This document shows, in pieces, positions 4,454 through 4,669 of a stretch of DNA of 5,035 nt. The DNA comes from Escherichia phage phi-8. Numbering within the stretch: the first letter of the stretch is position 1; each line of letters begins with the position of its first letter. Below the pieces are notes generated by a model that worked only from the letters and a program-made list of their open reading frames with translations, did not search any database and was not told the DNA's origin. The stretch lies in sequence record KF241843.1; one strand, 5' to 3'. The translations under genes and the position numbers were made by a program.

Positions 4454-4669
4454 ATGAGCAACCTACGAAAATATCGAGAGTCACTGAATATCTCTCAAAC
4501 AACACTTGCTAAGGCAGTTGGATGCACACAGGGAGCTATCGGACATTGGGAATCTGGTCGTCGCTTCCCAGACCTTAAAACATGCCGTGCTCTTGTTGCG
4601 TGTCTAAACAAGTTAGGCGCAAAAGTAAGTCTTGATGACGTGTTCCCGCCGGAGCACAAAGCCGCTTAA
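4454..4669 (+). CDS. cro: Cro-type HTH repressor, 71 aa, paralogous to the CI N-domain
   Basis: Track ORF 4454..4669(+) MSNLRKYRESLNISQTTLAKAVGCTQGAIGHWESGRRFPDL...; HTH TQGAIGHWESGRRFPDL aligns with [19 protein letters not shown]. Divergent from cI across OR, GGAGG SD upstream. Confidence 0.8.
   Translation: MSNLRKYRESLNISQTTLAKAVGCTQGAIGHWESGRRFPDLKTCRALVACLNKLGAKVSLDDVFPPEHKAA

Follow-up and report, generated by a model that had tools for sequence, protein, structure and literature searches.

A helix-turn-helix Cro and the CI N-terminal domain of a lambdoid phage carry a common recognition-helix motif and probably read a common operator half-site

Cro and the N-terminal DNA-binding domain (N-domain) of the CI repressor are ancient paralogs; the cro gene of phage 434 originated through displacement with a copy of the neighbouring DNA-binding domain of cI, and P22 Cro is truly orthologous to lambda Cro and has a helical fold (Hall et al., 2019; PMC6649833). 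Here we compare with these systems the cro and cI genes of a 5,035-nucleotide stretch of Escherichia phage phi-8 (sequence record KF241843.1), the whole of which is referred to below as the window. A preliminary description of this DNA had proposed that its Cro and CI N-domain share one recognition-helix motif, and this holds: both strings are present in the sequence, and the likeness is significant by sequence and by profile comparison. Most likely, this Cro consists of a single HTH_3 domain that, like 434 Cro, is of the CI-N-domain type rather than of the lambda/P22 Cro lineage, and the two proteins, judged from their sequences, probably read a common operator half-site. The genes, the folds, the placement of the motif on helix 3, six operator sites and the covariation of helix and half-site were computed directly. 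The features on which the argument turns are the following.

4454..4669, plus strand: cro, 71 amino acids plus stop, from the list of open reading frames (ORFs); first gene of the rightward operon, directly after the right operator region (OR) and followed by nutR and cII
4445-4449, plus strand: cro ribosome-binding site GGAGG
4496..4555, plus strand: Cro helix-turn-helix (HTH), from DSSP on the AlphaFold2 (AF2) model and from its alignment with the N-domains of P22 c2 and the 434 repressor
4496-4519, plus strand: Cro helix 2, residues 15-22
4520-4528, plus strand: Cro turn, GCT
4529-4555, plus strand: Cro recognition helix 3, QGAIGHWES, residues 26-34
3684..4343, minus strand: cI, 219 amino acids, ATG at 4343 (MKMKWYEL...), stop at 3684-3686
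4227..4286, minus strand: CI HTH, from DSSP on the AF2 model
4263-4286, minus strand: CI helix 2, residues 20-27
4254-4262, minus strand: CI turn, GMT
4227-4253, minus strand: CI recognition helix 3, QGGIGHWLR, residues 31-39
3684..4094, minus strand: end of the CI linker and C-terminal domain (C-domain), residues 84-219, from the PDB search (3bdn, 8gmu) and blastn

The shared string in Cro, residues 18-41 (nt 4505-4576), reads LAKAVGCTQGAIGHWESGRRFPDL, and its 24-residue counterpart in CI occupies residues 23-46 of the 219-residue form (nt 4206-4277). BLASTP aligns Cro with CI over 62 residues without gaps, 22 of them identical (35%; 42 bits, E=8e-11 for a single comparison), and profile–profile alignment of the two families with hhalign gives a probability of 98.6% and E=9e-16 over 61 columns, which together exclude a chance likeness. 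In the AF2 models of both proteins the shared TQG(A/G)IGHW lies on helix 3 and not outside the recognition helix, a placement for which the preliminary description had named structure prediction as the check. The string takes in the last part of helix 2, the turn, the whole of helix 3 and the loop that leads to helix 4, and the five-residue offset between the Cro and CI helices is the same as the BLASTP register. Thus Cro is significantly similar to its own CI N-domain over the whole domain, with the likeness concentrated in the HTH: seven of nine helix-3 residues are identical, and of a BLOSUM62 total of 88, helix 3 accounts for 36, the turn, helix 3 and loop together for 62, helix 1 for 6 and helix 4 for -6. 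In sequence register (offset +2), Q26, G27, A28 and H31 of Cro and Q31, G32, G33 and H36 of CI align with Q28, Q29, S30 and Q33 of the 434 repressor, which Aggarwal and colleagues reportedly identified in 1988 as base-contacting residues. By analogy, Cro and CI would carry equivalent helix-3 residues at base-contacting positions.

It is unlikely, in our estimate, that this resemblance is just the generic HTH_3 signature (L-A, G, I, W, G, P) and hence uninformative about a common DNA target. Such a reading draws on the essentially unrelated helices 1 and 4, on the at least 790 library representatives that match the CI N-domain more closely than its own Cro does, and on several identities at positions conserved throughout the family; in the HTH_3 consensus, I, W, G, P and the L-A of helix 2 are of this kind. 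Yet the exposed helix-3 residues T, Q, G, G and H are identical without being conserved in the family, and the identities specific to the pair are T-Q-G-x-x-G-H. At 30 bits, each protein also scores higher with its partner than with any non-orthologous HTH_3 chain of the PDB, where Cro reaches no more than 20 bits and the CI N-domain no more than 21 bits, and in both proteins the exposed positions vary in step with the operator half-site among the related modules described below.

A second alternative holds that cro is a recent duplicate of the adjacent cI N-domain, or was converted from it, and simply inherited the helix. Cro is indeed of the CI-N-domain (HTH_3) type, its ungapped alignment with CI reaches the C-terminal D-x-F-x-P region, and a displacement of this kind has been described for 434 (PMC6649833). 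Over the 62 aligned codons, however, cro and cI share only 40% nucleotide identity, and synonymous positions are randomised, with the same codon used for 5 of the 21 shared residues that have degenerate codons; on these grounds we rejected a recent duplication or gene conversion, which we regard as very improbable. The 30 bits of the window pair also stand against 56 bits for the 434 pair, and the Cro family with the LDDVFPP tail is spread over at least 10 immunity types in several enterobacterial genera, so any displacement would be old. The protein similarity is compatible with such an old event without proving one. Rather than recent duplication, we are fairly confident that selection on the proteins for a common DNA target has maintained the likeness of the helices.

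The fold of Cro decides which of the known arrangements the locus resembles. Cro matches Pfam HTH_3 (PF01381) with 46.4 bits, above the gathering threshold of 23 bits, and its AF2 model, built from a 30-sequence alignment with a predicted local distance difference test score (pLDDT) of 87, is a five-helix all-alpha repressor fold (DSSP helices 4-10, 15-22, 26-34, 41-54 and 60-63) in which helices 2 and 3 form the HTH. Foldseek relates this model to PDB 28tn at template modelling (TM) scores of 0.87-0.94, to CylR2, to the operator-bound P22 c2 N-domain (TM about 0.72-0.77, root-mean-square deviation 0.8 Å over 58 columns) and to the 434 repressor N-domain. Cro scores 15.9 bits against Pfam P22_Cro (PF14549), whose cut-off is 30.2, and has no match to Pfam Cro (PF09048), the lambda Cro family. 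Because Cro has the all-helical repressor fold of Pfam HTH_3, the arrangement is 434-like and not lambda-like. The preliminary description had spoken of a 434/P22 arrangement, of which the 434 half is borne out by the HTH_3 fold and the direct similarity of Cro to its own CI, but the P22 half is not, P22 Cro belonging to the lambda-Cro lineage (PMC6649833). It had also called the fold of lambda Cro unrelated; the folds do differ, but the proteins are evolutionarily related (PMC6649833). Apart from the lumping with P22 and the word "unrelated", its observation is correct and its interpretation essentially right; the checks that it had proposed, carried out or approximated here, brought no refutation.

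Prophages of Citrobacter, Enterobacter, Klebsiella, Cronobacter, Salmonella, Serratia, Pantoea and Sodalis carry homologues of this Cro (50-82% identity), among which TQGAIGH(W/Y)ESGRR is almost invariant. A homologue of solved structure is PDB 28tn, a "lambda repressor-like protein from Escherichia coli" released on 2026-03-11 (48-50% identity in Foldseek; E=4.5e-17 in the PDB search), for which we found no publication. It shares with Cro an LDDVFPP-type tail and differs in its helix 3, TAGAICHYE; it probably belongs to another immunity specificity.

The 434 switch (PDB 3CRO/2OR1) is the closest described parallel. There, too, Cro is a stand-alone five-helix HTH_3 domain that belongs to the CI-N-domain type, its recognition helix is nearly that of CI, the divergent genes are separated by three partly palindromic operators, and the two proteins are expected to compete for these. 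The differences are as follows: the window pair is much more diverged, at 30 bits as against 56 bits for the 434 pair (the 434 Cro sequence having been verified against 2CRO/3CRO), the window Cro has no direct similarity to 434 Cro (9 bits), and the window CI carries the C-domain of lambda. The 434 operator is a 14-bp ACAA-N6-TTGT, whereas that of the window has the 5+5+5 bp form ARTAC-N5-GTAYT.

The latter motif was searched for over the whole window with up to two mismatches and in 200 shuffled sequences. It has 17 matches against 5.3 expected, a number that 0 of the 200 shuffles reach, and the only matches with 0-1 mismatch (2124-2138, 2149-2163, 4353-4367 and 4411-4425) all lie in OR or in the left operator region (OL). 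As in the tripartite operators of lambdoid phages, three sites lie between the divergent cI and cro genes and three adjoin the leftward promoter PL, and all six coincide with "putative operators" of GenBank. The overlap of the OR sites with the rightward promoter PR and the cI maintenance promoter PRM was read by eye only. Sites and promoters are as follows, the operators being listed without a strand.

4411..4425: OR1, AGTACATATTGTATT, 0 mismatches; overlaps both the -10 and the spacer of the putative PR; at the same place in related loci; putative operator in AP005153
4379..4393: OR2, TGCACAATGTGTATT, 2 mismatches and the weakest palindrome; between the -35 elements of the putative PR and PRM; annotated in AP005153
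4353..4367: OR3, ATTACGCTCTGTACT, 1 mismatch; overlaps the -10 of the putative PRM; position conserved; annotated in AP005153
2124..2138: OL1, AGTACGATATGTACT, 0 mismatches, a perfect palindrome; overlaps the -10 of PL
2149..2163: OL2, AATACAATTTGTTCT, 1 mismatch; annotated putative operator
2182..2196: OL3, ACAACGCTTTGTATT, 2 mismatches; annotated putative operator
2150 to 2145 and 2127 to 2122, minus strand: PL, -35 TTGACC and -10 TACTAT, from the promoter scan; overlaps OL1 and OL2
4399..4427, plus strand: putative PR, -35 TTGTAT (4399-4404), 17-nt spacer, -10 TATTTT (4422-4427); by eye, 8/12 matches
4350..4378, minus strand: putative PRM, -35 TGGATG (4378 to 4373), -10 AATAAT (4355 to 4350); by eye, near the annotation in AP005153

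The half-sites are 10 bp apart, one helical turn, and the centres are spaced by 26 bp (OR3-OR2), 32 bp (OR2-OR1), 25 bp (OL1-OL2) and 33 bp (OL2-OL3). The PR and PRM assignments, which we infer, draw on reading by eye, GenBank annotation and conserved layout; the PR layout recurs in homologues, for example as TTGCGT-17-TATTAT in module L005. Since the -10 of PRM is 7 nt from the A of the ATG at 4343, transcription of cI would start at about that A, which suggests a leaderless cI mRNA, as in lambda. A further operator-like sequence, AATACAATTGGTTAT at 2296-2310 with 2 mismatches, is a 12/13 direct repeat of OL2, 147 bp farther from PL and within sequence homologous to lambda; it could be a weak fourth operator or could match by chance.

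Ten modules were compared, namely the window and nine other enterobacterial prophage modules, of which L002, L003 and L005 were reached via Cro homologues and L007-L012 via CI homologues with different helix-3 sequences. In all ten, a repressor with HTH_3 and S24 domains divergently adjoins a Cro of the family found in the window. Three nnnAC-N5-GTnnn sites lie at conserved offsets from the cI start in nine of them, L002 having two (OR3 is missing), and the OR layout of 26 and 32-34 bp is kept in seven of the nine related modules. The left arm of OR2, TGCAC/CGCAC, is conserved at its position in 6/10. The outer bases of the half-site change with helix 3 of both Cro and CI, in the following combinations.

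Cro TQGAIGH with CI TQG(G/A)(I/V)GH: half-site A(G/A/T)TAC
Cro TRGAVCH or TKGNISH with CI TKGAVSH or SKGAVGH: half-site (T/A/G)ATAC
Cro TQSSICH with CI TQGALSH: half-site ATTAC
Cro (Q/S)SRI(A/S)N with CI (P/Q)SR(L/I)GN: half-site ATCAC

By permutation over these modules, the true Cro/CI pairs share 49 helix-3 identities as against 38.3 in shuffled pairs (p about 0.008), and 38 as against 29.3 at the exposed positions (p about 0.013). As the modules are related to one another, the p-values are only indicative. Together with the six sites in OR and OL, this concerted change of helices and outer bases lends indirect support to a common half-site. In the modules with the SR(I/L)xNYE helix in Cro and CI (L002 2841-2950 and the L010 intergenic region), the turn is one residue longer and the half-sites are of the lambda-like ATCAC form, for example ATCACAAATAGTGAT, in the same 5+5+5 geometry.

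The constancy of the locus bears on a third alternative, that the 71-residue protein is not the functional Cro of the switch and is instead some other small Xre-type or antitoxin-like regulator that binds elsewhere. Weak, sub-threshold Pfam matches to YdaS_toxin and HTH_37 and the presence of the HigA antitoxin among the PDB matches would fit this reading, which we nonetheless hold to be the least probable of the three: the gene opens the rightward operon immediately next to OR, with nutR and cII behind it, its position is the same in 10/10 modules, and the window has no other operator-like sites with 0-1 mismatch.

Several observations weigh against the account given here. In phmmer, Cro against the CI N-domain reaches 30 bits, or E of about 0.03-0.05 at a library size of 1.8 billion, which leaves Cro outside the 790 library representatives that match this domain at E<=0.001, a distance that argues against close, specific paralogy. 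OR2 and OL3 are poor palindromes, each with 2 mismatches, and at its threshold the promoter scan detected neither PR nor PRM. The ten modules of the permutation test are interrelated and not independent. In L008, L009 and L011 the Cro and CI helices have just 3/9 identities, so a near-identical helix is not required for a shared operator, and the near-identity in the window is one end of a range. Neither does a shared half-site depend on paralogy, as lambda Cro also reads the operators of CI. The published footprints of 933W and BAA2326 concern other specificities, and the literature searched, which did not cover older subscription papers that may already state the similarity of the helices, holds no binding or other biochemical study of this immunity type (1717, 2851, Nil2, Stx1/Stx2-II Morioka). 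That Cro and CI of the window read a common half-site is nevertheless the reading we favour, and a broader one may be ventured tentatively: the LDDVFPP-tailed Cro, always paired here with CI N-domains of the "GHW/NYE" type, may represent a second independent and widespread CI-derived lineage in enterobacterial lambdoid prophages, beside the one case of 434 to which reference is usually made, with a code that relates helix 3 to half-site. If so, ten or more immunity types would make this code readable for Cro and CI simultaneously, with, for example, Gln at the second helix position corresponding to AGTAC/ATTAC, Lys/Arg to TATAC and Arg/Asn to ATCAC.

CI itself is a mosaic of an HTH_3 N-domain of its own specificity and a near-lambda C-terminal oligomerisation and autocleavage domain, joined at the hinge. 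It matches HTH_3 with 41.0 bits (threshold 23) and Peptidase_S24 with 99.7 bits, and the N-domain of its AF2 model (33 sequences; pLDDT 84-91) has DSSP helices at 5-16, 20-27, 31-39 and 46-56; in Foldseek with the full model the C-domain dominates and nothing is added on the N-domain. Residues 84-219 match the lambda CI C-domain save for a single change within the aligned region (L for W at residue 112), and the C-domain is 98-100% identical to the solved structures (PDB search, 3bdn and 8gmu; Foldseek, 98% for 8gmu). At the DNA level, blastn aligns cI to lambda cI at 93.1% over 407 nt, with 28 mismatches that are almost all silent, and the homology ends at 4094/4095, which is precisely where the hinge joins the N- and C-domains. 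The cleavage site A94-G95 (nt 4059-4064), Ser132 and Lys175 are invariant in 33 homologues, and CI thus has the Ala-Gly site and the Ser/Lys dyad of autocleaving LexA/CI-type (Peptidase_S24) repressors. The homologues were gathered with the full-length protein, the N-domain alone as a query having given only fragments; among 120 of them, at least 6 helix-3 types are fused to C-domains that are 79-99% lambda-like.

Longer forms of cI, a mechanical ORF of 233 residues (TTG 4385) and the 231-residue form of GenBank and its cluster, both span OR3 and OR2 and are probably over-extended; as the homologues begin MK.xW.EL, the ATG at 4343 is the likely start. An AAGGA lies 7 nt ahead of the second cI ATG (4337) and could serve transcripts that carry a leader.

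Besides the practically identical C-domain (residues 84-219, including cleavage site and catalytic Ser/Lys; PDB 3BDN, 8GMU), lambda and the window have in common the order gam-kil-cIII-ea10-N-OL...cI-OR-cro-cII, a distance of about 2.2 kb between OL and OR, and the probably leaderless cI mRNA from PRM. They differ in the N-terminal DNA-binding domain and the operators (helix 3 is TQGGIGHW in the window CI and GQSGVGAL in lambda), in Cro, which lacks the alpha+beta fold of lambda Cro, and in the replacement of rexAB by an ORF of unknown function. The OR spacing is 26 and 32 bp in the window, whereas it is 23 and 24 bp (about 23-24) in lambda, despite the lambda-type cooperativity domain. The operator-bound N-domain of the P22 repressor c2 superposes on the Cro model, and the c2 helix 3, SNVAISQWE, aligns with TQGAIGHWE. 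The Shiga toxin (Stx) phages 933W and BAA2326 have a switch with the same role in Stx prophages and three OR sites each. The helix 3 of 933W starts at S41-K42 and differs, as do the operators, and those of BAA2326 are weakly symmetric and of different sequence. We considered the footprints of both phages as direct evidence and rejected them, for they have no match to the window OR; since the recognition helices and the operators differ, the footprints are not transferable.

Taken together, these comparisons allow a working scheme in which binding, the order of site occupancy and cooperativity are what we infer. Dimers of Cro and of CI, with nearly the same helix T-Q-G-A/G-I-G-H-W, would read the same 15-bp operators. 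CI dimers on OR1/OR2 and on OL would shut PR and PL, CI at OR2 probably helping the adjacent PRM, and Cro dimers would compete for the sites of CI and shut PRM. RecA-stimulated cleavage at Ala94-Gly95 would remove CI on SOS induction, and the lambda-type C-domain may support cooperativity and looping between OL and OR over about 2.2 kb.

A switch of this kind controls prophage induction and hence Stx production, and the immunity type determines which Stx phages exclude one another. The proposal is a testable one, as it names six 15-bp sites and the contact residues in two proteins, and the co-varying triples of Cro, CI and operator form a small natural series in which the joint change of specificity in a DNA target and the two proteins that compete for it could be studied. 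Conceptually it repeats the 434 paradigm and the co-evolution of Cro and CI, which Cordes and colleagues are said to have described already. The region has long been known and annotated, the structure of a Cro homologue is solved and the principle is textbook; the locus is an ordinary member of a textbook genetic switch.

Phage homology in the window is confined to 79-4986, from the gam stop into cII, and positions 1-78 and 4987-5035 are plasmid polylinker with NotI, EcoRI, SpeI, SacII, SphI and AatII sites, read directly from the sequence. As both ends are polylinker and only 79-4986 is homologous to phage, the window is a cloned polymerase chain reaction product or plasmid clone and not a native genome context; we take the order of the sites to be of the T-vector type. 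With the early region of Stx-converting lambdoid phages the insert shares 99.7-99.9% identity; these are Stx2 phage 1717, Stx2a_WGPS4/6/8, 2851, Nil2 and YYZ-2008, together with the Stx1 and Stx2-II phages of strain Morioka V526, and the value for 1717, WGPS4, 2851 and Nil2 is 99.9%. In these near-identical phages cI, cro and cII are already annotated (cro as cro or putative cro), and in GenBank AP005153 the annotation comprises cI and a "putative cro" as well as three "putative operators" each in OR and OL. With good confidence, the window carries the lysis–lysogeny switch of a Shiga-toxin-converting lambdoid phage. Its other features are these.

79-495, minus strand: gam
between gam and cIII in the gene order: kil
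562-726, minus strand: cIII
681-739, minus strand: Rfam RF01804, the lambda cIII thermoregulator element, full length, 88.5 bits
799-1167, minus strand: ea10
1660-2004, minus strand: N, an HK97-like protein
between N and the ORF at 2661-3182: OL/PL
2661-3182, minus strand: ORF of 173 amino acids, placed where lambda has rexAB; matches PHROG 2602 (function unknown) over the full length with E=3.5e-102
downstream of cro: start of cII

The ORF at 2661-3182 is a candidate for a moron expressed in the lysogen; PADLOC matched neither the ORFs at the rex position nor those near N, and the roughly 500 bp between this ORF and cI (3183-3683) are without a long ORF. Positions 2244-2359 share 86.7% identity with lambda 35708-35826, which lies immediately downstream of rexB, and they contain a strong terminator hairpin on the minus strand (2359 to 2338, 8 pairs); this stretch is probably the end of the cI operon, retained although rexAB is absent. 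Finally, an identical boxB-like sequence, GCTGAAAAGC, occurs at 2033-2042 (minus strand) downstream of PL, as nutL, and at 4714-4723 (plus strand) downstream of cro, as nutR, where a boxA-like CGCTCTTTG near 4680 precedes it, and these boxB and boxA elements are consistent with the HK97-like N encoded at 1660-2004.

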